Source of the DNA: Ignisphaera sp.
GTDB lineage: Archaea > Thermoproteota > Thermoprotei_A > Sulfolobales > Ignisphaeraceae
Length of the DNA: 43,497 bases
Direction: 5' to 3'
Assembly (NCBI GenBank): GCA_038821645.1
Contig: JAWBDT010000016.1
Span: forward strand, 1 to 43,497
The translations under genes and the position numbers were made by a program. The notes under the pieces were generated by a model. The model worked only from the letters and a program-made list of their open reading frames with translations, ran no database searches and was not told where the DNA came from. Each line of letters opens with the position of its first letter. The stretch's first letter is position 1. Below, one piece after another: positions 22,086-43,497 of this stretch.

Positions 22086-22147
22086 ATTTCAGCGCAATTC
22101 TCTTCTATCATCAAAACTACTCAAATGCGGTGGAGGCTCATCATCTA
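22086..22147 (-). ncRNA. C/D-box guide sRNA overlapping the aroD 3' end
   Basis: C box ATGATGA (22144-22138), guide GCCTCCACCGCAT, D' TTGA (22124-22121), C' TTGATGA (22114-22108), guide TAGAAGAGAATTGCG, D box CTGA (22092-22089). Confidence 0.7.
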
Positions 22148-22781: not shown

Positions 22782-22791
22782 TATGGATCAC

Positions 22792-24830: not shown

Positions 24831-25975
24831 AGAGATTTGTACCTCTCCCATCTTTCTTGTATCGTTTCTACATCTTTATCTGAAAGCCTTACAGCAGGTA
24901 TAACATTAGCTCTAATACTATGATCTACTAATGTTATTGCCACCATTGCTTCAACAACAGCTACACCCCTAATGGCTATACATGGATCGTGTCTACCACG
25001 AATCGAAATTATTTTCTCTTCAAAAGATCTTATGTCCACCGTTTTCTGTGGAAACCTTATAGATGATGTTGGTTTGAAAGCACATCTAATAACTATCTCT
25101 TCACCAGTAGTTATACCCCCTAATATACCGCCAGCATAATTGTACCTCCACCGAATTCTTCCATTCTCTATGAATACCTCATCTGCTACCTCACTACCCC
25201 TCTTCTTTGCATAGTTAAATCCAAGACCATATTCGAAACCAGTAACACCAGGTATAGACATTACAGATTTTGCTAGATCAGCTTTAATCTTATCGAAAAC
25301 TGGTTCACCTAAACCCATAGGCGGATTAAGCACATGCACCTCTACAACTCCACCATAGCTATCACCATCATTAATTGCGTTACGCAGTACTTCAGCAAAC
25401 TTAGATTCAGCTTCAGGTTTACAGGCTCTTAACGGACTACATCTAGCGTGAACAAGATCATTAAAGCTTATGTTATCTTCAGTAGAGATAGGACCTATTG
25501 ATTTGATGCATCCTAAAACTAACGTATTGCTTAACATGAGGAGTTTTTTAGCTAATGCTCCAGCTATTACACGGGCAACTGTTTCCCTACCACTTGCTCT
25601 TCCACCACCCCTGTAATCCCAATTCTCATAACCATACTTGATTATATAGGGAATGTCAGCATGATTAGGTCTAGGAGTATACTTGATCTCTTCGTAGTAA
25701 CTTGAATCTACATCTATATTCCTCACAATAACAGTTATCGGCGCACCAGTAGTCCTACCATTGAATATACCGCTAATGATCTCTACTCGGTCTACTTCTC
25801 TTCTAGGTGATGTAAATGCTTTCCCAGGTCTCCTCAACCTAAGCTCGATTTCTATATCATCTATACTGATTGGTAATCCAGCTGGAACACCATCAATTAC
25901 AACCCCTACGGCAGGTCCATGACTCTCTCCAAATGTTGTTATCTTGAAGAATCTACCAAACGAATTTCCCGGCAT
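24803..25975 (-). CDS. aroC: chorismate synthase
   Basis: [33 protein letters not shown] and GRHDPC. Confidence 0.96.
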
Positions 25976-26756
25976 ACAGATAACCTATAATCTCTTCATA
26001 TGTCACCGTCACTTTACCAAACCATATCTCTTGTGCTTCTAGTGCTTGTTTAACTAGGATCTCAAGCCCATTTATCACCTTAATTCCTTTCATTTTAGCT
26101 TTGACTACAAGCGGTGTTTCAATAGGTCTATACACAAACTCTATAACAAGATCTGTATCGAGACACGCTTCCGGCACTATTTCTGGATTAGGTGTAGCGT
26201 TCACAACAACTCTTGATCTATTCTTGCACGATTCACCTACTTCAGCATCTATACCGTATTCTGCAAGGTCTTTAACCAGTTTTTCAGCTCTCCATCTACT
26301 TCTGTTAATTATCACAATTCTACAGCCCAGTTTCCCTAAAGCAAAAGCTGCTGCTCTTGCTGCTCCACCAGCGCCATAGATATAACAAATATCTCTATCT
26401 ATATTTCTCAGATACTCTTTAACAAACATCTCTACGGCTTTATAGTCAGTATTGTATCCAACACCTTTATGTATAGTGTTTACAGCTCCAATAGCTTTCG
26501 CTATAGGATCTAAGTCCTCTAGAAACTCTATCGCTTTCTCTTTATATGGAATAGTTATGTTCAGACCTTCGCATAACTCTATCAGAGCCGGAAACAGGTA
26601 CTGGAAACGTTCTTCCGGAATATCAAAAGCTAGATATACAGCATTACGTCCTGTCTTTCTAAACACGTAATTATGTATATGTGGTGAAAGAGAGTATTGT
26701 ATGTTTCTGCCTACAACACCGAAGAGTTTAGTAGAAGCATCTATTATCCAATCCAT
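25953..26756 (-). CDS. aroE: shikimate dehydrogenase
   Basis: [31 protein letters not shown] and NATP. Confidence 0.95.
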
Positions 26757-27808
26757 TTAGCTATACCTCTCTCAATTCTATCTATTGTTACCTCATGTTT
26801 AACCCATGTACCTATATCAACTAAAATAGGCATAGATATGCTGTTGCCTCTTCTCTTTTTATCTCTAGCTATAGACTTAATTACCTCATTTATATCAATA
26901 ATGATTGATAGATCCTTTATTGATGTTGGTAAGGAGTACTTTCTCAACATATTTTCTATAAGCTTTACACAGCTACTGTTTGTTATTCCTAATTCGGTGC
27001 CAAGTATTGTCTCAATGACCATACCTACTGCTACAGCTTTGCCATGAGGTACAATGAATCCTGATGCAGCCTCAATAGCGTGACCAACAGTATGTCCAAA
27101 ATTCAATACTATTCTTATACCCTTCAATTCGTAGGGATCTTCTTTGACTACGTTAAGCTTGTTCAGAATTGCTTTATACACTATATATTCTACTACATCA
27201 TCTCTTCGATTGATAATACCATCCACATTATTCTCTAAATAACTGAATAGTAATTTATCTAGTATAACGCCATACTTTATGACTTCAGCTAATCCATTCA
27301 AATACTCATTTTCTGGAAGTGTATCCAGAAAACCTATATCAGCTATGACTACATGTGGCTGATAGAAGGTCCCTATAACGTTCTTGATTTTCCTGAAGTT
27401 AACAGCGTTTTTACCTCCAATTGCTGCATCAACCATACCGAGTAGCGTTGTAGGAATGTTTATAAGTCTTATTCCCCTCATGTATATCGATGTAGCAAAA
27501 CCTACAACATCAGTAAGGGTTCCACCGCCAACGGCTATAACGTAATCGTTTCTCTGAAAATCTTCTCTATATAGATAATCAATTATATTGATTACTGTAT
27601 CCAGATCTTTATCTTGCTCACCTCCTTCAAGAACAAGTTCGTGTATATTGTCTCCTAAAACCTCGACAATTTGGTCTATGTTTATGGATTTCTGTCTAAC
27701 TATCAATACCTTACCATTCTTGACTATTTCTCTTAGATATCCAATAATATTTCTACCTATAAAAATCTTTGTATCAATACAACATATTCTTTCATCAATT
27801 ATCTTCAA
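26744..27808 (-). CDS. aroB: 3-dehydroquinate synthase (bacterial type)
   Basis: GGGTLTD, PTTLLGMVDAAIGGK, LNFGHT and HGKAV. Confidence 0.95.
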   Translation of the reverse strand: MKIIDERICCIDTKIFIGRNIIGYLREIVKNGKVLIVRQKSINIDQIVEVLGDNIHELVLEGGEQDKDLDTVINIIDYLYREDFQRNDYVIAVGGGTLTDVVGFATSIYMRGIRLINIPTTLLGMVDAAIGGKNAVNFRKIKNVIGTFYQPHVVIADIGFLDTLPENEYLNGLAEVIKYGVILDKLLFSYLENNVDGIINRRDDVVEYIVYKAILNKLNVVKEDPYELKGIRIVLNFGHTVGHAIEAASGFIVPHGKAVAVGMVIETILGTELGITNSSCVKLIENMLRKYSLPTSIKDLSIIIDINEVIKSIARDKKRRGNSISMPILVDIGTWVKHEVTIDRIERGIAKWIG

Positions 27809-28794
27809 ATCGATCTACCTACTGCTTGAGCTACAATCTTAATTCTCTCCATAAGGTTCTGGAACTCTTTCACAGATAATTGTTGCTCAGAATCACTCAA
27901 TGCTTTACTAGGCTCTGGATGCACCTCTACCATAACTACATCAGCTCCCGCTGCCACAGCTGCTAATGCTAGCGCCTCTACATATTCTCTTTTTCCTGAT
28001 GGATGACTTGGATCAGCTGCTATTGGTAGATGTGACATCTTTTTTGCTACAACCATACCAGCTATATCGAAAGTGAATCTAGTAGTATTCTCAAAAGTTC
28101 TTATACCTCTTTCACAAAGCACTACATGCCCATTTCCTTCTAACAATATGTACTCAGCTGAGAGCATCCATTCCTCAACAGTCATACCGAAACCTCTCTT
28201 AAGCAATACTGGTTTACGGCTTTTACCAACCTCTTTCAATAACGGATAATTCTGAGCATTTCTTGCTCCTATCTGGAGCATATCAACGTATTTGCTAACC
28301 ATATACACATCTCTTGGATCCATAACCTCAGAAACTATCGGTATGCCAACAATCTCCTTGACCTTCTTTAGTATATTTAACCCCTCTAAACCCAATCCTT
28401 GAAAGGTATAAGGACTTGTTCGAGGCTTAAATGCTCCACCTCTAATTAATGATGCTCCAGCTCTCTTAACAGCTTTAGCTACTTCGATCATCTGTTCTTC
28501 ATTCTCTACAGCACAAGGACCAGCTATTACAACTATCTTTCTACCGCCAATCTCGACACCATCAATATCGAAGACCGTTTTCTCTCTCCACTCATTAGAT
28601 GCTAGAGGAAACTTATACTTAGACTTTATCTTAAGATCAATATCTTCGTCAACGATATCTTCAATGAGTTTGTCGGGCCAAGCAATCACAATTCTTCTAC
28701 CATAGAGATCTACAACTCTATATGACGCAGATCTTGATCTAATAATCTCTACAATTTTTGACTCATCTCTATTCGGTTTCAATATGAACATCAT
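27805..28794 (-). CDS. aroF: type I-beta DAHP synthase with short N-terminal domain
   Basis: IAGPCAVE, GGAFKPRTSPY, QIGARN, LLKRG, CERGI, DPSH and EVHP. Confidence 0.93.
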   Translation of the reverse strand: MMFILKPNRDESKIVEIIRSRSASYRVVDLYGRRIVIAWPDKLIEDIVDEDIDLKIKSKYKFPLASNEWREKTVFDIDGVEIGGRKIVVIAGPCAVENEEQMIEVAKAVKRAGASLIRGGAFKPRTSPYTFQGLGLEGLNILKKVKEIVGIPIVSEVMDPRDVYMVSKYVDMLQIGARNAQNYPLLKEVGKSRKPVLLKRGFGMTVEEWMLSAEYILLEGNGHVVLCERGIRTFENTTRFTFDIAGMVVAKKMSHLPIAADPSHPSGKREYVEALALAAVAAGADVVMVEVHPEPSKALSDSEQQLSVKEFQNLMERIKIVAQAVGRSI

Positions 28795-29849
28795 ATCTTA
28801 CCACCCAATTCTTCGACAATTTTTCGAAAAAGTGTAAAGATTTTTTCATGAACAAGAGGAGAAAAACCATTATTCTTCTGAATCTCGTAAACAACATCCT
28901 TTATTTCATTAAGTCTTATACCTATAGCAGTAAGTTCCCTAAACGTTGGTGTTGAAAGTTTTAGTGGATCCACACCAAGTTCTTTCGATAGTTCTTCTAC
29001 ACCTAATTGAAATAATAGTATAAGCATGTGAGTTAAAACTTGAACTATTGCCATAGTCTTTTCATGTTCCTCGTAACTCACTACAATAGGATCTAGACCT
29101 ACACATTTCCAGAAATTAACAACATCTTCTAGAACATCTTTTCCTGTTTCTGAAGGTATTATCGCTATCTTCTGACTGTATGCTGGTGTAGATGGGCCGA
29201 AAAGCGGATGTGTAGACACATATGCAAATCCGTATATATGTGAAAGCTTCTCAACATGTTTGTATACCAAGTTTTTTGATGAAAGTATATCCATTACGAT
29301 TTTACCAGCCATATGTCTAGCAATAGTATCCACAAACCCATCTAAATAAGCTTGTAGCGAAAGAGCCAAGATTATGTGATTACATGATGCTAATGCTCTC
29401 TCGAGCTCTATAGCATTACAGCCTAACTCTCTTGCTACCATCTTAGCCTTTTCGATATCCCTCCCAGTAATAACGACCTCGAATCCTCTATTGATAATCT
29501 GTAGACCTAATGCCTTTCCCATCTTGCCGTAACCAACAATAGCTATCCGAGTACCATAGATATTTCTACATCCATCAATTGATTTAATCACATCTATTTG
29601 CAATTTCTTTGAATGTTTCAATATCTCCTTAAGTATTTGCTCCACAAGATCTAGTGGAACTCCATATGTTGCTGCAAGTTTTCTCCACTTTATCGATAGA
29701 TCTATTTCTCTCAATTCATCATTAATATTTAAGCCATAGCTACGTTTATATTCAGCTATATTCTTAACTAATTCCAGTCTCTTAGATAGTAACTCAATTA
29801 TTTGTCTATCTATTTCATCTATATTCTTCCTGATTTCAGCTATGTCCAT
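28791..29849 (-). CDS. tyrA: chorismate mutase (AroQ)-prephenate dehydrogenase fusion
   Basis: N-terminal [19 protein letters not shown]; then VGYGKMG, HPLFGP and EEHEKTMA; start placed at ATG 29849. Confidence 0.88.
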
Positions 29850-30783
29850 GATTAAGAACCTCACGACATTTCTCAGCAATTGTTTTTGAGTTAAGGTGGA
29901 AGTAATCCCATAACTCTTTCACACTTCTACCTGATCTTCCATAACCTAATGCACCTACAATTCTCATAGGAACTGGATATCTTTGAACAAGAACCTCGGC
30001 AACTGCACCTCCAAGACCACCATACACTATATGCTCTTCAACTACAACTATGCGCCCAGTCCTACGTGCATATCTCTCTACAAGCTCGATATCAAGAGGT
30101 TTAACTGAGATCATATTTATAACAGCTACATTAATACCTTCACGCTTCAATTCTTCTGCCGCTATAAGAGCCTCATAAAGTATAGGGCCTGCACCAATTA
30201 TCGTTACATCGTGACCTTCTCTAAGTACATATCCTTTACCAAGCTCAAAAACATAGTCATGATCAGCCGATATCGGTGGTGAATAATCTCTACCGATCCT
30301 ATAGTATAGAGGTCCATAAACATTTTTGATTACATAAGGAAGACTTCTCTCAACATCATACGTATCTGCAGGTACAACTATCTTCATGTTAGGTAGCACT
30401 CTCATCAAAGCTACATCCTCTAGCGCTTGATGACTAGAACCATCAGCATGATCACTATATCCTGCATGCGTTCCTATGATCTTGACATTTAGATTCATCC
30501 TATCTACACTATTCCTTATCTGTTCCCAAGCCCGCATCAAGAACATTGAGAAAGCTATAACTACTGGTTTAGCGCCTGCAGAAGCAAGCCCAGCTGCAAA
30601 CGATAACATATGTTGTTCAGATATACCTACATTGAAGTATCTATCTGGAAATTTTTTACCGAAGAGATATGCTCTAGTCGGTTTTCCTACATCTGCTGTA
30701 ACAACTACTAGATCCTCTAGTTCCTCACCCAGCATCTCTAGAACATGACCTACAGTATCTCTGAAAGATTTCAATTCCTGCAT
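29836..30783 (-). CDS. transketolase, C-terminal (pyrimidine-binding plus C) subunit
   Basis: [22 protein letters not shown] and VEEH..GGLG. Confidence 0.92.
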
Positions 30784-30801
30784 ATCTTTGGAACCTTCTA
30801 G

Positions 30802-31599
30802 TCAGCTTTTGTTTACATCTTTCGCTACATCACCGTTATTTGTATCGTTTCTACAGTTCTCTTTGATAGTTTTTGCAAATATTACTGTAGGTCTATCTGA
30901 TTCTAGTGCTTCTTCTATAGCTAGTATAATACTTGATATGTTATGACCGTCACACCATAGAACTTTCCAGCCCACCATCCTCCATATAAAAGGCATATAG
31001 CTCTTAGGCTTAATATCATCTGTACTACCATCAAGCTGACATTCATTGAAATCAACTATGACAATCAGATTGTTTAGCTTTAACAGAGGTGCATGTGTAA
31101 TAGCTTCCCATACCTGGCCTTCGTCTTGTTCACCATCACCTAGAATCACGAATACCCTTCCTCTTCCTCCACACCGCTTAATCCATGATGCCACACCTAC
31201 ACCAAAACTGATCCCCTGTCCTAGACTACCTGTAGACATATCTACTCCAGGTATCGATATATCTGGATGATTTTGTAGAATAGAGTTAACACTATTTATT
31301 TTGAATAATTCATTTTTATCTATAACACCAATTTCTGAAAGTATTGCATAGAGAGCTGGTGCTGCATGACCCTTACTCAGAATTAGCCAATCCTTATCAA
31401 GCTTATTTGAATTATTCCTAAGGAATCTTGTAGTTATTGTAGCTATTATATCGAGCGAACTTAGTGAAGATTCTAGATGAATATGTTTCTCCTGTTGACT
31501 TACAAGAAGAAGTGTTTTCCGAGCATTCTCTACTATCTCTTTTATCTGATTTATGCTATTGGATATGTTCTCTAATATTGGAGCTGCATCTCCCTTCAC
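30802..31599 (-). CDS. transketolase, N-terminal (ThDP-binding) subunit; start uncertain
   Basis: LSKGHAAP, STGSLGQG, GDGEQDEG..WEA..N and DGHN. Confidence 0.9.
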   Translation of the reverse strand: MKGDAAPILENISNSINQIKEIVENARKTLLLVSQQEKHIHLESSLSSLDIIATITTRFLRNNSNKLDKDWLILSKGHAAPALYAILSEIGVIDKNELFKINSVNSILQNHPDISIPGVDMSTGSLGQGISFGVGVASWIKRCGGRGRVFVILGDGEQDEGQVWEAITHAPLLKLNNLIVIVDFNECQLDGSTDDIKPKSYMPFIWRMVGWKVLWCDGHNISSIILAIEEALESDRPTVIFAKTIKENCRNDTNNGDVAKDVNKS

Positions 31600-31745: not shown

Positions 31746-33017
31746 ATGAATGTTTTGGTGTTAAAATATATGCTAACCTTGACGGAAAAGATAATTAGTA
31801 GAGCTGCTGGAAAGTCTATAGCCCCTGGAGATGTTGTTGAAGTAGGAGTAGATATAGTCGCTTTTCATGATCTGACAGGATACCACGTAATAGAGGTTAT
31901 GGAGAATGCAGGTCTCAAGAAGATTCACAAGCTTGAGAGTCTTGTTATAGCTTTTGATCATCTAGTGCCGCCACCAGATACCAGAAGTGCTGAGATTCAG
32001 CAAATCATAAGGAGATTTGTTAAAGAAATGAATGTTGCTAACTTTCACGATATTGGCTACGGGATACTGCATCAAGTTCTTGTAGAAAGATATGTTCTTC
32101 CTGGCCAAGTCGTTGTTGCAGCTGATAGTCACACAACAACATCTGGAGCTTTAGGCGCTTTTGCCCAAGGTATGGGTGCTAGTGATATAGCTGCAGCAAT
32201 TATAACGGGCAAGACATGGCTTACGGTACCCCAGCCTTTTAAAATAATTCTAGAAGGCAAGCTTAAGAATGGGTTCATTACAGGAAAAGAAGTTGCTCTC
32301 GAGATCTTGAGAGTATTTAAAGCAGATTATTTTGTGGGTATGTCTATAGAGGTATTCGTTAAAGAACCTTCAGCCTTCCCCATGGACTATAGAATAACTG
32401 TTGCTAATATGGGTATAGAGATGAACGCTGATACTCTTATGTTTATACCGGATATAGTTACAGAGAAATATCTAATGGATATGAGAGGTATTGAGGTAAA
32501 ACCTGTGCAACCAGATCCAGGAGCTAAATATATTGATGAGTATACAGTTGAACTCGATAAGGTAGGATTCCTAGTAGCTGCACCACATAGTGTTGATAAT
32601 GTTAAGTATGTTGAAGAAGTTAATAGAGAGGAAGTGGATATGGTGTTCATAGGCTCTTGTACTAACGGTAGACTAAGCGATTTCGAGATAGCGGCAAAAA
32701 TCATGAAAGGCAGAAAGGCGAAAACAAGGTGTATAGCTATACCAGCCTCTTGGAATGTATTTAGAAAGGCTATGGAATTAGGCTATATACAGACACTAGT
32801 TGAAGCTGGCTGTATAGTTACATACGGTACCTGTGGACCATGTATAGGTGGTCACTTTGGTATAGCTGGACCTAATGAAGTAGTTGTATCTACATCGAAT
32901 AGAAACTTCATAGGTAGAATGGGTAGTCCACAAGCAAAAATATATCTCTCAGGACCAGCTATAGCTGCAGCTACAGCTATACTTGGAAGAATATCAGAAC
33001 CAGGTGATGTAATATGA
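31746..33017 (+). CDS. leuC: homoaconitase / 3-isopropylmalate dehydratase large subunit; likely start ATG 31770
   Basis: [33 protein letters not shown] and STSNRNF. Confidence 0.92.
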
Positions 33018-33535
33018 TTATCGAGGGAAAGGTCATAAAATTAGGAGATAAAATAGATACAGATGTAATTATACCTGCTAAACACTTAAGATACACAGAT
33101 CCACAATACCTCGCACAACACGTCTTTGAACCCATTGACCCAGAATTCCATAAAAAGGCTCAAGGAGCAATAATAGTAGCCGGAAAAGTATTCGGCATGG
33201 GATCATCTAGAGAACAAGCAGCTATAGCAATAAAAGCTGCAGGCATTAAAGCAGTTATAGCAGAATCGTTTGCAAGAATATTCTACAGAAATGCTATAAA
33301 CAATGGTCTACCTGCAATAGTATGTCCTGAGATAACTAAAGAAGTTAGCGAGGGAGACATAATTACTGTAAATATAGAAACAGGAGAGGTTGCTATAGGA
33401 GGCAACAAAATCATAAAATGTAAAAGTATAACAGGAATGGCGCTAGAAATACTAAAGAGTGGAGGACTTATCGAGTATCTGAAGAATCTGGAAAAAAAGA
33501 AAAATGAGGTAACTGAATTACATGAACATAAATAG
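33014..33535 (+). CDS. leuD: homoaconitase / 3-isopropylmalate dehydratase small subunit
   Basis: [18 protein letters not shown] and [15 protein letters not shown]. Confidence 0.92.
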
Positions 33536-34572: not shown

Positions 34573-35724
34573 TTGATCATGGGTATATGTCGTTTATGTG
34601 GTTATAGTAGCAAAACTGTTAGTAATGTTGTTGGAGTTTGTGTAAAATGTTTGAGAAATAATACTGAGGCTGTCAAAATAGCTATGGAAGTCCACAAGAG
34701 GTATAGAGAGAATATTGGATTGAGTATAGAGCCTCCTAGAGATCTTAATGGAGTAAAATGTGTATTGTGTGTTAACGAGTGTCGTATTCCTATTAATGGA
34801 TACGGTTTCTGTGGTATGTGGAGAAACATTAAAGGTGTTCTAAGATTTATTGAAGATTCTGGATATGGTGTTCTTCATGCATATCTAGATCCTTTGCCAA
34901 CAAATTGTGTAGCAACACCTGTATGTCCTGCCACTACTGGTGCTGGTTACCCTAAGTATAGTGTCTCTATAGGGCCTGAGTATGGTTACTATAATCTAGC
35001 TGTGTTTTTTGTTGGATGTAATCTCGATTGTATTTTTTGCCAGAATTGGCAGCATAAGGATATAGCTGTATCACCAAAGCTTAGAAAACGCTATTTAATG
35101 TCTGTTGATCAACTTGTTAAAGAAGCTATCGAAAACAATAAAGTATCTTGTATATGTTTCTTTGGTGGGGATCCTGGACCTCATACAATTTACGCTCTTG
35201 AAGTAGCTAGAAGGATCTTAAGGTATAGTTCAGAAAATAATGTCATTAAGAGAATTTGTTGGGAGACAAATGGTTTAGAGAATCCGAAGATAATGAAGGA
35301 AATGGCCAAATTAAGTCTTGAGAGTGGAGGTATTATTAAAATTGATTGGAAGGCATACACCCCAAATGTGTATCAAGCTCTTACAGGTGTTGATGGATAT
35401 AGAGCTATTGAGAGAATTAAAGAAAATATCGCTCTTTTAGCTAATATGTCTAGAGAAAGAAAAGAAATCCCGCTACTAGTCATAAGCATTCTTCTCGTAC
35501 CAGGCTACGTAGATGAAGAAGAAGTCGAGGGTATAGCTAAATATGTATCTTCAATTGATAAAACAATACCTATAGTTCTTTTAGCTTTCCATCCTGATCA
35601 TCTCCTTAGAGACTTACCTCCGACAAGTATAAATCATGTTAGGAAATCTGTAGAGATTTTAAAAATTTATGGAATTGAGAATGTGTTTGTAGGTAATGAA
35701 TGGCTTCTTGGGTATTTCTATTGA
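34573..35724 (+). CDS. radical SAM protein (PflX / AmmeMemoRadiSam-like) with N-terminal Cys clusters
   Basis: CNLDCIFCQNW (CxxxCxxC), GGDP, ETNG and AFHP; N-terminal CRLC..CVKC and CVLCVNEC..FC. Confidence 0.85.
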   Translation: MIMGICRLCGYSSKTVSNVVGVCVKCLRNNTEAVKIAMEVHKRYRENIGLSIEPPRDLNGVKCVLCVNECRIPINGYGFCGMWRNIKGVLRFIEDSGYGVLHAYLDPLPTNCVATPVCPATTGAGYPKYSVSIGPEYGYYNLAVFFVGCNLDCIFCQNWQHKDIAVSPKLRKRYLMSVDQLVKEAIENNKVSCICFFGGDPGPHTIYALEVARRILRYSSENNVIKRICWETNGLENPKIMKEMAKLSLESGGIIKIDWKAYTPNVYQALTGVDGYRAIERIKENIALLANMSRERKEIPLLVISILLVPGYVDEEEVEGIAKYVSSIDKTIPIVLLAFHPDHLLRDLPPTSINHVRKSVEILKIYGIENVFVGNEWLLGYFY

Positions 35725-35764
35725 GATACTTGTGAAACGTCAGGTCAGGATATAGTCTCTATTC

Positions 35765-36790
35765 TTAGCGGAAACCCGGTGGCCTGATTTTTAGTACCTC
35801 TTTATTGACTAGTGTTGGTGGTTCTCTCCCTTCGTAGAACGCTATCAGATTCTCAGCTACTAGCTCCGCCATAGCGTGTCTTGTCTCATATGTTGCTGAA
35901 CCTATATGAGGTAGTATAACAACGTTCTTGAACGCTGTCAACGGATGATTTGCAGCTAGAGGTTCTTGTTCAAATACGTCTAGACCTGCTCCAGCAATCC
36001 ATCCCTCCTTTAAAGCCTTCACTAACGCTTCTGTATCTACTACAGCTCCTCTAGCTGTATTTATCAGTATGGCTGATCTCTTCATTTTTTTCAATCTTTC
36101 TTCATTTATCATATGGTATGTCTCTCTAGTTAATGGAACATGAAGCGACACTATGTCTGCTTCTTGTAAAAGTTGATCAAGTTCTTTGAATTCAGCCCCT
36201 ATCTCCTTCTCTAACTCTTCATTTCTACTCCTATCAAAGTATATAACCTTCATTCCAAACCCTTTAGCACCTATTTCAGCAACTCTTGAACCTATTCTAC
36301 CACAACCTACTATACCTAGCACCTTGCCTCGTAACTCTATACCTAGCATCATCTTTGGATGCCATGCTGTTTTAAGTCTCTCCCATTCACCCCATCTAAC
36401 GAAGTGATCTGCTTCTACAATTCTTCTAGCAACAGCTAGGATCAAAGCCCATGTCAATTCAGCTGTAGCTTCGGTTAGTACCCCAGGAGTATTAGTTACG
36501 TAAATCCCTAATTTTGTTGCACAATCAATATCTATATTGTCGTATCCTACAGCTAGTTGTGCAACTATCCTTAAGTTCTTAGCTTGATACAGAAGATTAC
36601 AATCTATTCTATCGCTAAGTAAACTAACTAAAGCATCTACCTCTCTAGCTTTCTCAAGTATCACCTCATATGGTGGTGGCTGATATCTATCCCATACCTC
36701 TACATTATAATACTTCTCTAGCCTCTCAATTACATCTGTAAACAACTCCCTAGTTATAAAGAGCTTGGGTTTAGTCATAATTAACACCAT
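35765..36790 (-). CDS. gyaR: glyoxylate/hydroxypyruvate reductase (D-2-hydroxyacid dehydrogenase)
   Basis: [36 protein letters not shown] and PHIGSA. Confidence 0.9.
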
Positions 36791-36822
36791 ATCTATGTGT
36801 TAAAACATCCAATCCTAAAACA

Positions 36823-38982
36823 CTATAGGTTCAGAGATTTAGAGAGCTCTTTAATAGCATTAACGACTCTTTCTCTGAATGCAATATAGCTATTCGTAAA
36901 TTCTTTCAATGTTTTTGCGCATGGTCCATATGTTGGCCAATCTTTAGGACTTACACCTCTATATCCATAGTCTTTGTTTATCCCCACCTTCTTTAATAAG
37001 TCTACAACCTCTGGCGAAGCTTCATAAGCTTTCACAAAATCCTCATATTGCATAAGTATATCGAGATATTCTTTTGGTAGTTCTTGGTATATAGATTCCG
37101 CTAAATCATCTAATCTAATACTCTTTCCAACAACTTCATTAACTACCGAAAGTTGATGATCAGGAAATTCAGTATTTGTCATGTTTCTTGAAGCATATGT
37201 GTATAGTGTATCTATAGGCTTTCTCTTTGAGGCTGGCAGAAGATCTATTCTGTCTAGTATCATTTCTGCTTGATCTCTCCTTATACCGAATTCTCTGACC
37301 AGATACTCTATCCATTTCTCTCTATTCCATGGAGAGAACAGTATTTCATAAACTCTTTGAGCTACATATGTACCTGAAAGTTTTAGGGCCATTTCAAGAG
37401 GTTTGAGCATCTTTAGTACATCCTCTCTAGAGCCATAGGCTCCTGTTTCAGTCAGTACCTCTATGTATGGTTCTCTAATGAGATCTCTACCCAATACCCT
37501 ATGACTACATAGATAGTCAACTATATCTCTTATGTTTAACGACTTAATCTTAGTCCAAGTGGCTTCATCAACTTTCAATCCTTTGGCAAGCTTTTCAAGC
37601 AACATCATCTTCTTATCCTCATCTACATTTTCAAGAGCCTTCATAAGTAGTTTTGCAGCTATATCTTCCCTAAGATGATCCTCAAGCCTTCCACCCATGT
37701 TTGTGTCATAGGTTTGTGTAGGTATAATACCTTTCTTAACAGCTTTAGCCATACCCTTCATGGCTCCAAAAGCTACTAAGACCTCTTGAGCAACAGTATA
37801 ACTGACGGTTATATTCTGACCAATACCTATTTCATTCAATCTTTCTGCAATCTCTATAGATTCAGGATAGCCTGCTGCAACCTTGATAACTAGGTTAGGT
37901 CTACCTTTTTCTGATACATTATAGCCCCACCAGAGATATTCATCGTATATCTTTAAATCCTCCTCAAGCCTCATTGCAAATATCTTTGCTGCTTCAACAC
38001 TTTTCTCTACGTTATTAGCTATAAGTGGATTAAGCTGATAGCTAACAAGACCATCATGATATCTTGAAAGTATAAAGGGTACCCTAAATACGTAAAAGTT
38101 ATCTAGGAGAGCAAATCTTGTTGCTTCCATTGCTATGTCGTCAGCATATCTATCAGGATCTTTAAACCATTCTGGATACTTTTTAGATAATATGTTTCTA
38201 GCATAATCAATGAATCTATTCCATAGATCAGGATCATCATCATAAGCCTTTCCAGCAAGCACAGGATTAGTGGATACTTGTACATACCCTAGATGTCTGA
38301 GCCATCTTAATCCCAGAGCATAATCATTACCGAATTTACACAACCCCTTCTCATAACTTTTCCTATAAACGTTTTCAGTAAACACATTTCTTACAGCTAA
38401 AACAAAACTTTTTGCAACTGCATCCATGTCTATACTATTCATAATCTTTCTAGCCATTTCGGCTACAAGACTCTTACCTTTATTAACCTTAAGCATTTCT
38501 TTTACATTAAGTTCTATTGTTGCTAGAAGCACATTTGGAGAACCAAGTTCTATTCTCTCAATATTTTCCCATTCGCTAAGCGCATTAGTCAAAATTGTAA
38601 TCGCTTCTTCAATAGTCTCTTCGTCAAAATCACTCCAACGGCTCTCAACACCAACAAGATTCATTATGAGTTCAATAACTGTATCATATATTCTTGCTCT
38701 CCTAAGTATTCTATTATTGAGTGTCTCTAGATCAGTAGTAGATAAACTCTCGGACCTGATTACAAGATTCGCTCTTCTAATAAAGCTTCCAAGCACATCC
38801 AGCAACATATTCTTCATATCGTAATGAAGGATGTGATCTGCCGCTAATTTTGTGTATCCCGCTAAAGCTGTTTTAAGCATATGGTCTGCATGATCTACAG
38901 CTGGAGGTACTGGAAGAGATAATGGTTCGATAGAAACCTTCTTCAACAAATTGATTACATAATCTTTACTCAAGTAAATCAT
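36823..38982 (-). CDS. large transaldolase/fructose-6-phosphate-aldolase family protein with about 200-aa N-terminal extension
   Basis: FGNDY, STNPVL, VSYQLNP, NLVIKVAA (Schiff-base Lys), NITVSYTVAQ, GRLED and TNTEFP. Confidence 0.8.
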   Translation of the reverse strand: MIYLSKDYVINLLKKVSIEPLSLPVPPAVDHADHMLKTALAGYTKLAADHILHYDMKNMLLDVLGSFIRRANLVIRSESLSTTDLETLNNRILRRARIYDTVIELIMNLVGVESRWSDFDEETIEEAITILTNALSEWENIERIELGSPNVLLATIELNVKEMLKVNKGKSLVAEMARKIMNSIDMDAVAKSFVLAVRNVFTENVYRKSYEKGLCKFGNDYALGLRWLRHLGYVQVSTNPVLAGKAYDDDPDLWNRFIDYARNILSKKYPEWFKDPDRYADDIAMEATRFALLDNFYVFRVPFILSRYHDGLVSYQLNPLIANNVEKSVEAAKIFAMRLEEDLKIYDEYLWWGYNVSEKGRPNLVIKVAAGYPESIEIAERLNEIGIGQNITVSYTVAQEVLVAFGAMKGMAKAVKKGIIPTQTYDTNMGGRLEDHLREDIAAKLLMKALENVDEDKKMMLLEKLAKGLKVDEATWTKIKSLNIRDIVDYLCSHRVLGRDLIREPYIEVLTETGAYGSREDVLKMLKPLEMALKLSGTYVAQRVYEILFSPWNREKWIEYLVREFGIRRDQAEMILDRIDLLPASKRKPIDTLYTYASRNMTNTEFPDHQLSVVNEVVGKSIRLDDLAESIYQELPKEYLDILMQYEDFVKAYEASPEVVDLLKKVGINKDYGYRGVSPKDWPTYGPCAKTLKEFTNSYIAFRERVVNAIKELSKSLNL

Positions 38983-39168
38983 TACTTCCCATTCCCTCTA
39001 AAAATATTCAACACATGATATAATGTTTACAAATAAAAACTTTACCATCCATGATGTTGTAGATAGAATCCGCCAACTTTTGGGCTACACTATTCCAAAC
39101 TAGGTGGTATTTCATTAGAAGTCCAGTTAGAATCTATATCTAGATAGGTTTATTAGCAAGATTATGTT

Positions 39169-40518
39169 GTGTCCAAGACAGGATCTAGTATGAATGATTC
39201 GACAATTACATCAAGAGAAAGAGTTTTAATTGCGCTTAGACATGAAGAACCAGATAGAGTTCCCATAGATTTTGGATCTACACATGTATCGACAATAAAT
39301 CCTCTAAGTTATAGAGATCTAAGAAAATACCTAGGATTGGTAGAGAAACCAGCTAGAGTTAAAGATGTTGTTGCTCAGCTTACTGAAGTAGATGCAGACA
39401 TCCTACAGATTTTTCACATCGATCTAATAGATGTTAATAGGCATTTGCCGCCAACAACTGGTGAAGACTATTATAGGGATCTCTTCTATCAATGTATGAC
39501 ATGTCTCTACAGAGAGAGCGAGACAGGTAAAGCTGAAATATATGAACATAATTGGAAGCAGTGGACTCATAGATATCTTGGTTTTGTTGAAGAAATACCA
39601 GCATGCATAGATATAGTTGAGGAGGGAGATTCTTTATCTATCTATCTAAATAAGTCGGTTCTACTTGGTAAAGGATCTAAAACTAGCTCTACATTCTCTC
39701 CTCCAGATGCACATGGTGTTAACCCGTTAGCTAATGCTAAGAATGTAGAAGATGTTAAGAACTTTGATTGGGAACTATTTAAGGTTAGCGATAGGTATGT
39801 AGAGTATCTTAAGAAAAAATCTGAGTATCTTTATAAAAATACTAAATATGCATTAGTGTTTTCGTTAGCTGGGCGTATGCACGCATGGGCACAAGGTCTA
39901 AGAGGTTGGACACGATGGCTCTCTGATTTACGTCTTAGAAAAAGTTTAGCTGAAGCTGTTTTAGATCACATAATGGATGTGTTAATGTATAATGTTAAAA
40001 AGTATGTAGAAGCATTTGGAGAATATGTACAGGTTATAGGTTTTGCAGATGATTTAGGAACTGAAGAAGGCCCCCAGATATCAATTCAAACATTTAGAGA
40101 TGTATATAAGCATAGATATGAAGAGATATTCAGTTACATTAAGAGACATTCAAAAATGTATGTATTCCTGCATAGTGATGGGGCGATATTCCCACTTATA
40201 AAAGAGTTCATAGATATTGGTTTAGATATAATAAACCCTATACAATTGTCGGCAAAAGGTATGGACCCTGAAAAACTAAAGAAAGAATATGGTGAGCAGA
40301 TAACGTTCTGGGGAGGAGGGGCAGATGTTCAGCATGTCCTCCCATTTGCTAAAGTTGATGAAGTAGTTCAGCATGTGAAGAACTTGATAAAGATTTTTGC
40401 ACCACGTGGAGGATTCATATTTGCGACAACACATAACATACAACCACCTACACCTCCTGAAAATATAGTCTCAGTATTTAAAACAGCATATGAGAATGGA
40501 AGATATCTAATTAGGTGA
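39169..40518 (+). CDS. UroD/MtaA-CmuA-superfamily methyltransferase-like protein
   Basis: SRERVLIALRHEEPDRVP, FADDLG, FLHSDG, INPIQ, FWGGG and GGFIF..HNIQ; lacks the UroD RQAGR motif; coupled to a corrinoid-protein gene. Confidence 0.8.
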   Translation: MSKTGSSMNDSTITSRERVLIALRHEEPDRVPIDFGSTHVSTINPLSYRDLRKYLGLVEKPARVKDVVAQLTEVDADILQIFHIDLIDVNRHLPPTTGEDYYRDLFYQCMTCLYRESETGKAEIYEHNWKQWTHRYLGFVEEIPACIDIVEEGDSLSIYLNKSVLLGKGSKTSSTFSPPDAHGVNPLANAKNVEDVKNFDWELFKVSDRYVEYLKKKSEYLYKNTKYALVFSLAGRMHAWAQGLRGWTRWLSDLRLRKSLAEAVLDHIMDVLMYNVKKYVEAFGEYVQVIGFADDLGTEEGPQISIQTFRDVYKHRYEEIFSYIKRHSKMYVFLHSDGAIFPLIKEFIDIGLDIINPIQLSAKGMDPEKLKKEYGEQITFWGGGADVQHVLPFAKVDEVVQHVKNLIKIFAPRGGFIFATTHNIQPPTPPENIVSVFKTAYENGRYLIR

Positions 40519-41178
40519 GTGAATATAGCCGAAAATATACTTAATAAAATAAAGAATAGTCTAGCTGAACTTGATTTAGAAGGAACACTAAAGTGGATTG
40601 AAGAAGCTTTAAACAATGGTGTGAATATTATGGATATAATTGAGAAGGGTCTTTCTGAGGGAATGAAAATTGTTGGCGATAAATATGAGAAGGGAGAGTA
40701 TTTTGTAGCTGATATGATTGTGGCTTCAGAAATATTTAATGAAGCTATGAATATGCTAAAACCCATAATTAGTGAATCGAAAAAAGAGATAAAAACGTTA
40801 GGAAGAGTAGTTATAGGAACGGTTTATGGTGATATACACGATATAGGTAAAAACCTGGTTAAAGCTGTTCTAGAAGCAAATGGATTCGAGGTCATAGACC
40901 TAGGCGTAGATGTACCTATTGAGAAATTTGTTGAAGCTGTAAAGGTATATAAACCAAATGTCTTGGGAATGTCGGCTCTATTAACTTCATCAATGGTTCA
41001 TATGAAGGATATCATAGAGGCCCTTGAGAGAGAAGGCTTAAGGGATAGTGTTAAAATAATTGTTGGAGGAGCTCCAGTAACAGAAGAGTTCGCTAAATCT
41101 ATAGGAGCTGATGCTTATGCAGAAAATGCCTTTAAAGCTGCTGAGATATGCAAAAAGCTCGTAACTTCTAAAGTTTGA
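40519..41178 (+). CDS. corrinoid (B12-binding) methyl-carrier protein, MtaC/MtbC-like
   Basis: Cap domain GMKIVGDKYE..YF, then GDIHDIGKNLV (DxHxxG), SALLT and VGGAP. Confidence 0.92.
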   Translation: MNIAENILNKIKNSLAELDLEGTLKWIEEALNNGVNIMDIIEKGLSEGMKIVGDKYEKGEYFVADMIVASEIFNEAMNMLKPIISESKKEIKTLGRVVIGTVYGDIHDIGKNLVKAVLEANGFEVIDLGVDVPIEKFVEAVKVYKPNVLGMSALLTSSMVHMKDIIEALEREGLRDSVKIIVGGAPVTEEFAKSIGADAYAENAFKAAEICKKLVTSKV

Positions 41179-41294
41179 AATATTTTACTTTGTTATCGAC
41201 TTTAAACATTGTCTTATTTACTTAATAGATGTTCTTTGAGATTATTAAAGATTATTTTACTTCTTATTGATAGTTTAAAAATATGTGAAAAATT

Positions 41295-42569
41295 ATGCAG
41301 AACATCATTGAATTAGCAAACAAACTGTATAATGAGATACAAGGTATAGATGTGGTCGACATTCATGAACATTTGAATCCCAGTAGACTTAGTGCAAAGA
41401 GCTTCAATGATATCATATTCTATCATTATATAGTTACAGAGTTGATTTCTGCGGGCATGAATAGAGAAGAATTTGAGAAGCTTTCTCCAATCGATAGGTT
41501 CGTCAAGGCTCTACCCTACTTTAAGTTTATCAGAAATACCACTACGTTTTGGTCATTAAAACAGATACTAAAGGATCTCTATGGGTTAGATATAAATGAA
41601 ATAAATGAAAGTAATTGGAAAAAAGTTGTCGAATCTATAGAGAGCAAACAGCGTGACTATACATGGGTGTATACTGTACTTAGAAAGTTCTGTAGAGTTA
41701 AGAAATCGTTTCTAACATTGAGTCCTTTAGAGCCTATACCGATATATGATAGAGATATCTTTACAGGTGCTTTAAGACTAGATGTTTTAGTGCAAAACAT
41801 GAGTAAGGATGTTATATTGGATCTCGAGAATAGGTATAGCTTAAGTATTGAACGTACCGAAGATCTTGATCATGTCTTGGAGATTATATTCAATAGATTT
41901 GATCAATATATTGTAGCAGTTACGCTACCTATACAGCCTGATGAGATTTTCAGAATAACGCATAGAAACGAAATATCTCTCTATCTTAGGGAATTGAGAT
42001 CCAAAGACATTATTGGTCCTGAAGCTAGATATGCTCTAGCGTCTTACACACTACACAAGATACTTACATTATGTTCGGAGCACAAGAAAGTATTTCAGAT
42101 GATGCTTGGGGTTAAAAGACCTGTTCCCAAGGCTGCGCCACCAGACTACGCTATAATTATGTATAATCCAGAACAGCTATACATACTGACACAAATTTTT
42201 GCAATATATTCTGATGTAAAATTTGATGTATTTATAGCCGATTCTACTCTATCACATCAAGTAACCGTAATCGCTAAGAATTATCCCAATGTTTACCTAA
42301 GTGGATACTGGTGGTATTCAATGTATCCTGAAGTAATGAAGAGTTATCTTCGTTTAAGGTTACAGATGCTACCGTACAATAAGATTGGTGGATTCTTTAG
42401 TGATGCATATGTAATTGAGTGGGTATATGGAAAAGCTTTACTAGCAAAGAAACAGATAGCATATGTTTTAGCGGAAATGATTGCTGAAGGATACATAGAT
42501 AATGATTTAGCTATGGATATAGCTCATGCTCTTCTCCATGAAAATGCTACAAAACTGTATAATGTATAG
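41295..42569 (+). CDS. uxaC: uronate (glucuronate) isomerase-like amidohydrolase-fold protein
   Basis: VVDIHEHL, YHYIVTELISAG, NTT..W, YPNVYLSGYWWY and FFSDA. Confidence 0.75.
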   Translation: MQNIIELANKLYNEIQGIDVVDIHEHLNPSRLSAKSFNDIIFYHYIVTELISAGMNREEFEKLSPIDRFVKALPYFKFIRNTTTFWSLKQILKDLYGLDINEINESNWKKVVESIESKQRDYTWVYTVLRKFCRVKKSFLTLSPLEPIPIYDRDIFTGALRLDVLVQNMSKDVILDLENRYSLSIERTEDLDHVLEIIFNRFDQYIVAVTLPIQPDEIFRITHRNEISLYLRELRSKDIIGPEARYALASYTLHKILTLCSEHKKVFQMMLGVKRPVPKAAPPDYAIIMYNPEQLYILTQIFAIYSDVKFDVFIADSTLSHQVTVIAKNYPNVYLSGYWWYSMYPEVMKSYLRLRLQMLPYNKIGGFFSDAYVIEWVYGKALLAKKQIAYVLAEMIAEGYIDNDLAMDIAHALLHENATKLYNV

Positions 42570-42579
42570 TTGACAATAG

Positions 42580-42596
42580 CTACGTTAATTACGTAG
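42580..42596. other. inverted repeat CTACGT-TAATT-ACGTAG
   Basis: Read directly between the uxaC-like gene and the next gene. Confidence 0.35.
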
Positions 42597-42661
42597 TAAT
42601 CTAATTTACAACCATAATACTTATTTTCCTCAAATAATTGCAATATAGTTTGGTGATGTTA

Positions 42662-43497
42662 GTGCTCTATGGATTTATAAGGAGAAAAGATTTAGAATAT
42701 GTATCAAAATTTCCATGGGATATAGGTATAATATCGTTTATGTTATTTCCAGAGCTGATGAAAAGTTCAGAAAATGCTACAGAAAAGATAAGGCTATTGC
42801 TTGAAGATCCATTCTTTGACTTAATAGAAGTAACAGTAATAGACGATAATGAATGGCTAAAGATAGCTGAAGTAAATAAGTCATATGGTAAAAAATTTGT
42901 GCTTGGATTACAACCTGTAATTCTTTCAAAAGGCCTGAATCCAAATGCATTAAATGATGAAGAGAGAAGAAAGACTATCGAGATTCTTGTTCATGAAGTT
43001 GAAAAAGTTGGTAAACGAGGGTACATAGGTGTAGGTGTATGTTCAGGACCAAATATAGAGGGGCCCGAAAGATCAAAAGCCATCGATGCTCTAGTAAAAT
43101 CATTGATAGAGCTCAGTAACATTGCAAATAAGTATGGTATCAAATTATTCTTAGAAACTTTTGATGTTGTATGGGATAGAAAAAGACTTGCTGGTAGCTT
43201 AGACGAAACTATAAAAGTAATTGAAAAGGTCAGAGAAGTTGTTGATAATGTATACATTATGTGGGATCTCAGTCACGCACCACTTCTTAATGAAGATCCA
43301 GAAATCTTGAAATCCTATCCAGACTACATAGGACATATCCATATAGGATGTGCAAAGAAAATAGATAATAAACTCCTAGATACTCATCCAGGCTTCTACA
43401 GACCAGGTGCTATCAATACTGAAAAAGATGTTGCTAAACTAATATCAGTTCTACACGAAATAGGCTACAAAGGTGCTATAAGTTTTGAGATAAGACC
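42662..43497 (+). CDS. sugar-phosphate isomerase/epimerase (xylose-isomerase-like TIM barrel), 3' end runs off the window
   Basis: Manual translation from GTG 42662 (SD GGTGA 5 nt upstream): LFLETFD, MWDLSH, HIHIG, DTHP and GYKGAISFEIR; no stop in the window. Confidence 0.8.
   Translation, partial: MLYGFIRRKDLEYVSKFPWDIGIISFMLFPELMKSSENATEKIRLLLEDPFFDLIEVTVIDDNEWLKIAEVNKSYGKKFVLGLQPVILSKGLNPNALNDEERRKTIEILVHEVEKVGKRGYIGVGVCSGPNIEGPERSKAIDALVKSLIELSNIANKYGIKLFLETFDVVWDRKRLAGSLDETIKVIEKVREVVDNVYIMWDLSHAPLLNEDPEILKSYPDYIGHIHIGCAKKIDNKLLDTHPGFYRPGAINTEKDVAKLISVLHEIGYKGAISFEIR

Follow-up and report, generated by a model that had tools for sequence, protein, structure and literature searches.

Which substrate do genes serve when a transaldolase-like protein, a putative uronate isomerase and a hydroxypyruvate reductase share one locus with a corrinoid methyltransferase? 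The question is raised by one end of a contig of Ignisphaera sp. (genome G000; 1.57 Mb, 31 contigs, completeness 97.8%). The whole contig (G000:C16), 43,497 bases long, is the window analysed here, and positions refer to it unless another locus is named. Six open reading frames (ORFs) form two divergent sets, with gyaR and the gene of a 719-residue protein of predicted transaldolase fold (TAL719) on the minus strand and four others on the plus strand, just as a preliminary description of the DNA had placed them. Our reading, offered as tentative and somewhat short of an even chance, is that the region is a catabolic cluster for a sugar acid, most likely a hexuronate, into which a corrinoid methyltransferase module has been inserted. 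The features concerned are the following.

35765..36790, minus strand: GyaR-type glyoxylate/hydroxypyruvate reductase, passing equivalog model NF009714 (605.1 bits against a cut-off of 455)
36823..38982, minus strand: TAL719, a 719-residue protein of predicted transaldolase/fructose-6-phosphate aldolase (FSA) fold (PF00923 TAL_FSA, 44.9 bits against a gathering cut-off of 27)
38983..39168, no strand: divergent intergenic region between the TAL719 and methyltransferase genes, AT-rich by inspection
39169..40518, plus strand: MT449, a methyltransferase-like protein of the UroD superfamily (PF01208, 64 bits)
40519..41178, plus strand: corrinoid (B12-binding) protein (PF02310, 106 bits; PF02607, 70.7 bits; TIGR02370, 216.8 bits against a cut-off of 215.3)
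41295..42569, plus strand: UxaC-like amidohydrolase of the BH0493 type, 424 residues, putative uronate isomerase (assigned from relatives in the PDB)
42638..43495, plus strand: AP_endonuc_2 TIM-barrel isomerase/epimerase (PF01261, 69.9 bits), truncated by the contig end
34573..35724, plus strand: radical SAM protein (PF04055, 73 bits; AmmeMemoRadiSam-type model, 70.6 bits against a cut-off of 220), a flanking gene that probably lies outside the pathway

The plus-strand genes stay on one strand throughout, with gaps of 0, 116 and 68 bp between the MT449, corrinoid, UxaC-like and TIM-barrel genes. The identical six-gene order occurs in a related genome, G004, and in metagenome run X10 from another study, where a single contig of 76,819 bases spans 35700-43497 unbroken with 117 differences; because the order recurs in both, it is not a misassembly. 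RNA library X20 gave contigs on gyaR, TAL719, the methyltransferase gene, the methyltransferase/corrinoid junction, the corrinoid gene, the UxaC-like gene and the TIM-barrel gene, which, given possible DNA carry-over, cannot prove transcripts. The radical SAM and gyaR genes remain adjacent in G004 and in loci L024-L026 of the closest other species.

A putative sugar-acid module around TAL719

The preliminary description assigned TAL719 to the transaldolase (TAL)/FSA family, an assignment borne out by the PF00923 match and the predicted fold but not by size or kinship: the protein is about three times as long as FSA and belongs to an unnamed archaeal family. At least 860 homologs were found at E ≤ 0.001, unnamed or labelled 'transaldolase family', in Ignisphaera, Thermofilaceae, Bathyarchaeia, Brockarchaeota, other Thermoproteota and some bacteria. 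The PF00923 match is confined to residues 230-404 (profile positions 17-149 of 285), and the NCBIfam transaldolase model scores 25.8 bits, below its cut-off of 367. Searched against the PDB as a single sequence, TAL719 retrieved nothing at E ≤ 1; the family profile reached PDB transaldolases at E 1.5e-3. The AlphaFold 2 (AF2) model (pLDDT 94.9, pTM 0.92) has 37 Foldseek matches at E ≤ 1e-3, and among the matches listed all are transaldolases or a TAL-type aldolase (TM score by target 0.53-0.73). As modelled, TAL719 adopts the transaldolase TIM-barrel fold, to which it adds a helical domain at the N-terminus (1-211) and a further insertion, also helical, of about 150 residues (430-578), both foreign to known transaldolases and FSA, which measure about 220-320 residues.

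Catalytic residues of the fold can be traced in TAL719. The Schiff base would form on strand 4 at K367, a lysine invariant in 45 family sequences; its IKVAA motif, an instance of the I-K-x-x-A strand of transaldolases and FSA, aligns with IKIPA of 3r5e (RPNVMIKIPA) and with IVIKIP of a 222-residue TAL of genome G002, the latter as a motif check only, as hhalign aligned the lysine strand alone at a probability of 0.75%. The N-x-T motif that follows the lysine strand in TALs is present as well. Q316, invariant in the same 45 sequences, aligns weakly, in an HMMER domain of 3.2 bits, with the catalytic Glu of 3r5e (SIEVDP), a strand-3 residue that corresponds to Glu96 of TalB. A glutamine at this site is also seen in FSA, in which Gln59 takes the place of the transaldolase Glu and Tyr131 is catalytic (PMC13259622).

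The UxaC-like protein appears, from its sequence relatives, to belong to the BH0493 branch of the amidohydrolase superfamily as a distant relative and putative uronate isomerase. Its PDB relatives are 4i6v ('Amidohydrolase 2', 4e-37), the BH0493 uronate isomerase (6e-13) and the TM0064-type 1j5s (1.7e-8). The HxH motif DIHEH lies opposite DMHTH of BH0493 and DPHSH of 4i6v, and toward the C-terminus GYWWY and SDAYV lie opposite GCWWF and SDARV of BH0493. The TIM-barrel protein, whose ortholog in G004 is uncut at 315 residues, matches MJ1311 (1.8e-5) and TM0416 (7e-4) in the PDB; it stays below the cut-offs of the equivalogs for IolO (NF041099, 39.4 bits against 300) and hydroxypyruvate isomerase (Hyi, TIGR03234, 31.8 against 353.45).

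Gene neighbourhoods add the metabolic context. Of 180 candidate stretches with TAL719 homologs, 179 were confirmed and the best 80 were kept as loci, 40 of which have at least 5 kb on both sides. With blastp at 1e-10 and at least 50% query cover, one or more sugar-acid partners turned up in 44 of the 80 loci. The numbers of loci with each partner are the following.

TIM barrel of the window type: 23 of 80
GFO_IDH_MocA: 22 of 80
UxaE-like (PF16257): 21 of 80
GyaR, within 5 kb of TAL719: 17 of 80
Zn-dependent alcohol dehydrogenase (Zn-ADH): 16 of 80
creatininase: 15 of 80
glycerate kinase: 7 of 80
UxaC-like: 7 of 80
glycoside hydrolase family 2 (GH2): 5 of 80

Among 16 relatives in the genus, 14 have TAL719 and 14 have the UxaC-like gene; of 15 genus genomes with both, 9 have the two adjacent or at most 2.5 kb apart. 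Judged from these neighbourhoods, TAL719, the UxaC-like protein, the TIM barrel and GyaR form a putative conserved sugar-acid module. Sister genomes carry fuller versions of it. The G015 cluster comprises a UxaE-like gene (split), TIM, TAL719, glycerate 2-kinase, GH4 (split), GH2, GyaR, a second 2-hydroxyacid dehydrogenase and an HpcH-family aldolase; that of G006 has an ABC transporter, GH2, TAL719, TIM and UxaE-like genes; and that of G002 combines Dak1/Dak2, about 7 kb from TAL719, with UxaE-like, several TIM, GFO, TAL719, UxaC-like and GH2 genes. The GH2 protein of the sister genomes is predicted to be beta-glucuronidase (GUS)-like, its top PDB matches all being beta-glucuronidases (4jkm, 5.5e-99) and its NF007538 score 453 bits, under the cut-off of 544. 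UxuA, Mannitol_dh (UxuB-type) and Pfam UxaC (PF02614) were each found in none of the five Ignisphaera genomes searched, in which the controls were detected; the claim of the preliminary description that the route bypasses UxuAB and 2-keto-3-deoxygluconate (KDG) agrees with this, and its proposed C3+C3 split of a keto-uronate to glycerate gains support from the GH2, UxaE-like, glycerate 2-kinase and dihydroxyacetone (DHA) kinase genes of the sister genomes.

The simplest reading of the core, to which we give an even chance from the gene neighbourhoods, is a hexuronate route in which a 2-keto-uronate would be split between C3 and C4 and the acid fragment converted to 2-phosphoglycerate. It follows from the company that the class I enzyme keeps, since a uronidase, an isomerase and an epimerase adjoin it together with a reductase, a glycerate 2-kinase and, once, a DHA kinase. 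Enzymes of the TAL/FSA type act on substrates with the D-threo (3S,4R) configuration of fructose. D-fructuronate shares this configuration and D-tagaturonate does not, which may be why a UxaE-like epimerase accompanies TAL719.

Further arrangements of TAL719 were seen in other archaea. Loci L034, L037, L046-L048, L058, L071, L073 and L082 surround it with a recurrent set of creatininase-family, GFO_IDH_MocA, TIM, UxaE-like and Zn-ADH genes, often with GyaR; the hosts of this creatininase/GFO_IDH_MocA/TAL719 module are Desulfurococcales and Thermoprotei metagenome-assembled genomes. In L055-L061 and L069 (e.g., L056:8612-14099), labelled Brockarchaeota, Nitrososphaerota or Thermoproteota, genes of the URO-D family of about 370 residues stand on both sides of TAL719 with no corrinoid gene within 10 kb, and the additional genes are radical SAM, TIM, glycerate kinase, class II fructose-bisphosphate aldolase, GH20 and GH42. 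This is a second, independent association of TAL719 with UroD-type proteins.

Points against a keto-uronate route

Several observations weigh against a hexuronate cluster at this locus. Some concern breadth: 36 of the 80 TAL719 loci have no sugar-acid partner, and outside Ignisphaera the UxaC-like neighbour is mostly missing. Others concern the supply of substrate. No transporter gene was seen within the cluster; tblastn found no GH2, UxaE-like, Dak1/2 or GFO gene in G000; and GH67 and GH115 alpha-glucuronidases and pectinesterase were each found in none of the five genomes. No gene that would supply uronate, free or methylated, was seen. Co-occurrence with GH67 and GH115, which the preliminary description had put forward as a check, thus did not appear. 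The name of uronate isomerase, taken from the same description, is supported by the BH0493-like motifs and relatives but applies to a distant protein that has no Pfam match and scores 44.8 bits against 387 on the NCBIfam glucuronate isomerase model NF002794, failing both curated UxaC models (PF02614 and NF002794). A TTTAAAAA box lies about 13-20 nt upstream of the UxaC-like ATG and suggests that this gene may have a promoter of its own. More generally, the reading is built on gene content, folds, motifs, conserved gene order and a predicted interface between methyltransferase and corrinoid protein, from which we infer every substrate and reaction.

A further set of points bears on TAL719 itself, which might be a sugar-phosphate transaldolase, either the cell's sole one for the pentose phosphates or a step in a route for inositol or neutral sugars. 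It would then split no keto-uronate, and the UxaC-like and TIM proteins would have other substrates. In four of the five genomes searched it is the only PF00923 gene (G000, G004 and G006, and G015 aside from a 90-residue fragment) and could therefore be the ordinary sugar-phosphate enzyme. A split transketolase and a shikimate operon lie 5-14 kb off in the window. By motif reading, the phosphate-binding Arg/Ser/Arg triad of TalB appears to be kept, and at the position of FSA Tyr131 there is, by inspection of motifs and not by residue-level structural alignment, an invariant M429, with Y425 close by. The genes most often found with TAL719 outside Ignisphaera are those for GFO_IDH_MocA, Zn-ADH, TIM, creatininase and UxaE-like proteins, a set that resembles the Thermotoga route from inositol to tagaturonate, with TAL719 as a downstream enzyme. 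That route, however, ends in tagaturonate and fructuronate and would itself need a downstream enzyme, UxuA and UxuB-type proteins not having been found. The presence of GyaR and glycerate 2-kinase beside TAL719 argues for an unphosphorylated C3 acid as product, GUS-like GH2, UxaC-like and UxaE-like neighbours point to uronates, and the glutamine in place of the transaldolase Glu also speaks against such an enzyme. On balance we regard a sugar-phosphate role as having a small chance.

The methyltransferase-corrinoid pair

Translation of MT449 likely starts at the ATG at 39190; a homolog 99% identical to it (P0123) has 442 residues. In Foldseek searches with the AF2 model (pLDDT 86.3), which includes a beta-rich insert of about 45 residues, MtaA-type methyltransferases (4ay8/4ay7, 4e-13) outrank UroD decarboxylases. 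The model thus has a UroD fold, with MtaA-type methylcobalamin methyltransferases as the nearest solved structures. As a single sequence MT449 found nothing in the PDB at E ≤ 1, and the family profile reached MtaA at E 4.9e-4 and CdmB at E 5.8e-3 over 59 residues; because these matches are weak, MT449 represents a distant branch of the superfamily that includes the aryl O-demethylases. Close kinship to the clade of aryl O-demethylases and haloalkane enzymes was not found in a comparison with CdmB alone, the sole PDB member among MtvB, OdmB, VdmB, MtoB and CdmB. The UroD superfamily includes aryl O-demethylases and the chloromethane enzyme CdmB, and CdmB and a Moorella enzyme work without zinc (PMC13222342).

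The corrinoid partner passes TIGR02370 and carries D105-x-H107-x-x-G110, invariant in 11 sequences. A gene of the MT449 family is directly followed by a corrinoid gene in G000, G004, G013, G008, G002, G009, G001, G038 and G005, and the adjacency is also seen as a contig-end fragment in G012 and with a methyltransferase remnant in G015, at least 10 genomes overall. For the predicted complex of MT449 and the corrinoid protein the score was 0.77, while none of three controls rose above 0.00; three runs agree on at least 75% of contacts, and the partner pLDDT is at least 80. Solved complexes attained that mark in 58 of 80 cases, mismatched pairs in 2 of 110; because like complexes are solved, the score shows likeness, not binding. 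MT449 and the next gene are thus predicted to be a genuine corrinoid methyltransferase module, and the pairing proposed in the preliminary description holds. In one feature MT449 departs from most of its family: H335 is invariant among 14 aligned sequences, whereas residue 337 is Asp (LHSDGA) in MT449 and four others and Cys (LHSCGS/LHTCGS) in nine. The motif H-x-C...C is the zinc site of MtaA-type enzymes, and the Asp may mark an altered or lost metal site.

No corrinoid activator or methyl acceptor is encoded within the window, as had been noted before, and G000 has two RACo-type activators, an MtrH homolog and a core-MetE-like gene elsewhere. In G038, methyltransferase, corrinoid, MetE-like and MtrH genes are contiguous. 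A second corrinoid and URO-D (436 residues) pair of G000 stands with a transporter of the major facilitator superfamily (MFS; L105, G000:C12:31472-43574). This unit adjoins FdhD, a molybdopterin oxidoreductase and an Amidohydro_3 protein, flanking genes that may represent one-carbon (C1) oxidation of the formylmethanofuran-dehydrogenase-like kind. A third URO-D protein, of 368 residues, is encoded beside a DHPS-like pterin protein, a radical SAM gene and a B12 salvage and uptake cluster (L104, G000:C24:1815-10741) of CbiZ, DBI_PRT, FecCD, Peripla_BP_2 and an ABC ATPase. The DHPS-like protein, 548 residues long, scores 408 bits on TIGR00284 and has an MtrA-like C-terminal stretch, which makes the set a candidate methyl-corrinoid:pterin transfer unit. 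On the same contig (L104, G000:C24:13916-15102), the gene for quinolinate synthase NadA is broken into two ORFs, 201 and 230 residues long, that overlap; a frameshift or an assembly error could account for this.

Among distant relatives of MT449 (30-46% identity), 7 of 80 metagenome loci have a corrinoid gene, and the neighbours are mixed, most of them oligopeptide (Opp-type) or sugar ABC transporters, with GH38 (5 loci), FGGY and MFS_2 besides. Two large 'clusters' among these loci were discarded as antisense ORFs over the methyltransferase gene itself.

Linkage of the pair to uronate genes

Conservation of the six-family neighbourhood, another check proposed at the outset, extends to G000 and G004 only (methyltransferases 97% identical). 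The closest other species (L024-L026), whose TAL719 is 76-77% identical, has TIM, UxaE-like and UxaC-like genes in that order, followed by TAL719, GyaR and radical SAM; the flanks match G004, TAL719 stands directly beside the UxaC-like gene, and neither a methyltransferase nor a corrinoid gene is present. From this order the G000/G004 lineage would have lost the UxaE-like gene and gained the pair, which is, by this comparison, apparently a recent, lineage-specific insert and a single evolutionary event. Orthologs of the methyltransferase (72-81% identity) stand beside DUF2139 in G006, G007 and G013, there with a corrinoid gene, beside GH3 in G015, and also beside GH29. Because these are not uronate genes, the substrate need not be a uronate, and a substrate specific to uronates becomes less likely.

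A uronate-type core beside a functionally unrelated pair, brought there by rearrangement and acting on another donor, is an alternative to which we allow an appreciable minority chance. Candidate donors would be methanol, methoxylated aromatics, as for MtvB and MtoB, or further pectic sugars that bear methyl groups, for example 2-O-methyl-fucose and 2-O-methyl-xylose. Besides the restricted gene order, the position beside DUF2139 (G006, G007, G013) appears to be the ancestral one for the ortholog, the UxaC-like gene may have its separate promoter, and the family has up to 8 matching places per genome, fragments and weak matches included, with paralogs in varied loci (GH78, GH127, apiosidase-like, some free of glycosidases). 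The aryl O-demethylases and the chloromethane enzyme of the superfamily offer precedents (PMC13222342). Set against this, corrinoid genes recur near TAL719 or UxaC-like clusters: G015 has a corrinoid gene and a methyltransferase remnant at the end of its TAL719 cluster, and G007 has the corrinoid ortholog after GH36 and GH35 genes and divergent from the UxaC-like gene. The family profile is also far from CdmB and MtaA, and so not close to the tested member of the aryl O-demethylase/haloalkane clade, and with pectinesterase found in none of the five genomes there would be no methanol source of the cell's own. The G015 locus itself (L188, G015:C1:317000-336999) shows gene decay, with the UxaE-like and GH4 genes each present as two ORFs and the methyltransferase beside the corrinoid gene reduced to a fragment with several stops.

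Carbohydrate-active enzyme genes lie within 10 kb in 7 of the 14 methyltransferase-family loci examined (GH3, GH29, GH78 twice, GH127 and a pectin-type locus), a count that lacks a matched control and in that respect also tempers our reading. The pectin-type locus L200 (G010:C6:56000-75999) has GH35, a URO-D protein of 360 residues, an Abhydrolase_3/BD-FAE esterase, GH42, a pectate lyase and an apiosidase-like PF13204 gene, together with an MT449 paralog (47% identical), a GH127-like gene and an Opp-type ABC transporter; from this content it resembles a pectin/rhamnogalacturonan-II locus. We consider a methyl group derived from carbohydrate a plausible donor, with chances evenly balanced; that it is a methylated uronate is distinctly less probable, and for 4-O-methylglucuronate specifically the prospects are slimmer still.

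The preliminary description had proposed exactly that sugar: 4-O-methylglucuronate from glucuronoxylan would be demethylated, isomerized to fructuronate, cleaved to dihydroxyacetone and tartronate semialdehyde, and reduced to glycerate. The layout fits this proposal in several respects. The methyltransferase, corrinoid, UxaC-like and TIM genes share a strand from TAL719 to the contig end; the pair sits at the TAL719/UxaC-like junction, and the UxaE-like 'feeder' that elsewhere lies between the UxaC-like and TIM genes is gone here; retro-aldol cleavage between C3 and C4 needs a free O4, which is established chemistry; and GUS-like GH2 and UxaE-like neighbours in sister genomes provide a uronate context. 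Against it stand the failure to find GH67 or GH115 in any of the five genomes, a cluster in which no xylan-specific gene was seen, methyltransferase orthologs in non-uronate contexts, and paralogs in pectin/rhamnogalacturonan-II-like loci that point to other methylated sugars. The literature search turned up no corrinoid enzyme acting on sugar methyl ethers or other sugar methyl groups or on 4-O-methylglucuronate, and on Ignisphaera corrinoid systems nothing beyond one unrelated mention. We hold this exact path to be very doubtful. Overall, comparative evidence favours the uronate-to-glycerate half of the earlier interpretation; the link to the methyltransferase-corrinoid pair is not conserved, and the xylan alpha-glucuronidases were not found in the five genomes searched.

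Proposed pathway and relation to known systems

In the sugar-acid cluster with an inserted methyltransferase module that we favour, a free uronate would be converted to a 2-keto-uronate (D-fructuronate) by the BH0493-like amidohydrolase. TAL719, as a class I lysine Schiff-base enzyme, would then cut the C3-C4 bond of the keto-uronate, and the C1-C3 unit would be released as dihydroxyacetone or handed to an aldehyde acceptor. The C4-C6 unit, tartronate semialdehyde, would be reduced to D-glycerate by GyaR, perhaps after conversion to hydroxypyruvate by the TIM-barrel enzyme, and a glycerate 2-kinase encoded elsewhere in G000 would yield 2-phosphoglycerate. MT449 and the corrinoid protein would constitute the methyl-donor:corrinoid half (MT1 + CoP) of a B12-dependent methyl-transfer system. 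Its carbohydrate-derived donor might be a uronate methylated through an ether or an ester bond, or a different methylated sugar of cell walls. MtrH or MT2-type proteins whose genes lie elsewhere would accept the methyl group, and activators of the RACo type would hold the cobalt in its reduced state.

Each half has known counterparts. TAL719 shares with transaldolase and FSA the barrel, the lysine strand and the motif behind it, and apparently with FSA the glutamine; it seems unlike FSA in the Met read at the Tyr131 position and is unlike both in neighbours that suggest an acid substrate, not a phosphate. The Ashwell hexuronate pathway (UxaC, UxuB, UxuA, KdgK, KdgA), taken together with Thermotoga UxaE, is matched by an isomerase of the UxaC/BH0493 branch here and by UxaE-like and GUS-like neighbours in sister Ignisphaera genomes. 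In place of its UxuB, dehydratase (UxuA) and KDG branch, which the proposed route would replace, there are a TAL-like enzyme, GyaR and a glycerate kinase. In the lower glucarate/galactarate pathway (the aldolase GarL, GarR and GarK), tartronate semialdehyde is converted to glycerate and then to 2-phosphoglycerate. The proposed tail from tartronate semialdehyde to 2-phosphoglycerate is the same, and the G015 cluster has an HpcH/HpaI-family aldolase, two 2-hydroxyacid dehydrogenases and a glycerate 2-kinase; the reductase here is instead a GyaR-type D-2-hydroxyacid dehydrogenase, the cleavage enzyme is a putative class I protein of TAL fold, and no dehydratase was seen. A fructuronate aldolase or transaldolase was not found described in the literature searched, and a route from uronate to glycerate through TAL-fold cleavage appears to be undescribed.

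The methyltransferase side resembles the three-component systems of the UroD superfamily (MtvABC, OdmABD, MtoABCD, CdmBCA; also MtaA), in which a UroD-fold methyltransferase is likewise followed by a DxHxxG corrinoid protein. G000 has RACo-type activators and MT2/MtrH candidates elsewhere, and the interface of the pair is predicted. Unlike those systems, MT449 is a distant relative with a beta-rich insert, its host is a hyperthermophilic, non-methanogenic member of the Thermoproteota, and its neighbours are glycosidase and sugar-acid genes rather than genes of the Wood-Ljungdahl pathway or methanogenesis. Donors known for the superfamily are aryl methyl ethers, haloalkanes, methanol and methylamines, not sugars (PMC13222342).

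Genomic surroundings

The rest of the window is devoted to other functions. Positions 1-31599 hold genes of amino-acid biosynthesis, among them homoserine dehydrogenase and kinase, LysX/ArgX-type genes, arginine genes and carbamoyl-phosphate synthase. A complete shikimate operon occupies 22089-29879 and a split transketolase 29836-31599; an aconitase-family pair of large and small subunits follows the transketolase at 31746-33535.

Implications

The fate of methylated sugars in anaerobes, among them xylan-derived 4-O-methylglucuronate and the methyl ethers of rhamnogalacturonan II sugars, is poorly understood; the demethylases known to work without oxygen take aromatic ethers, haloalkanes, methanol and methylamines. 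In its boldest form the reading of this locus would be that Ignisphaera and related Thermoproteota combine a novel TAL-fold fructuronate split with UroD-type corrinoid methyltransferases that demethylate plant-cell-wall sugars and pass the C1 units to MtrH-type acceptors. We regard this as a long shot. Candidate donors for the expanded methyltransferase family would then be 4-O-methyl or methyl-esterified uronates and the 2-O-methyl-fucose or -xylose of rhamnogalacturonan II. If it is true, B12-dependent removal of methyl groups from carbohydrates would be seen here for the first time; corrinoid systems would gain a substrate class, and the breakdown of polysaccharides would be tied in a new way to C1 metabolism in hot habitats without oxygen. 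If TAL719 cleaves keto-uronates, hexuronates would have a third route of breakdown in addition to the Ashwell (isomerase) and oxidative pathways, and TAL719 would be a thermostable enzyme that acts on carbon-carbon bonds and accepts acid substrates.

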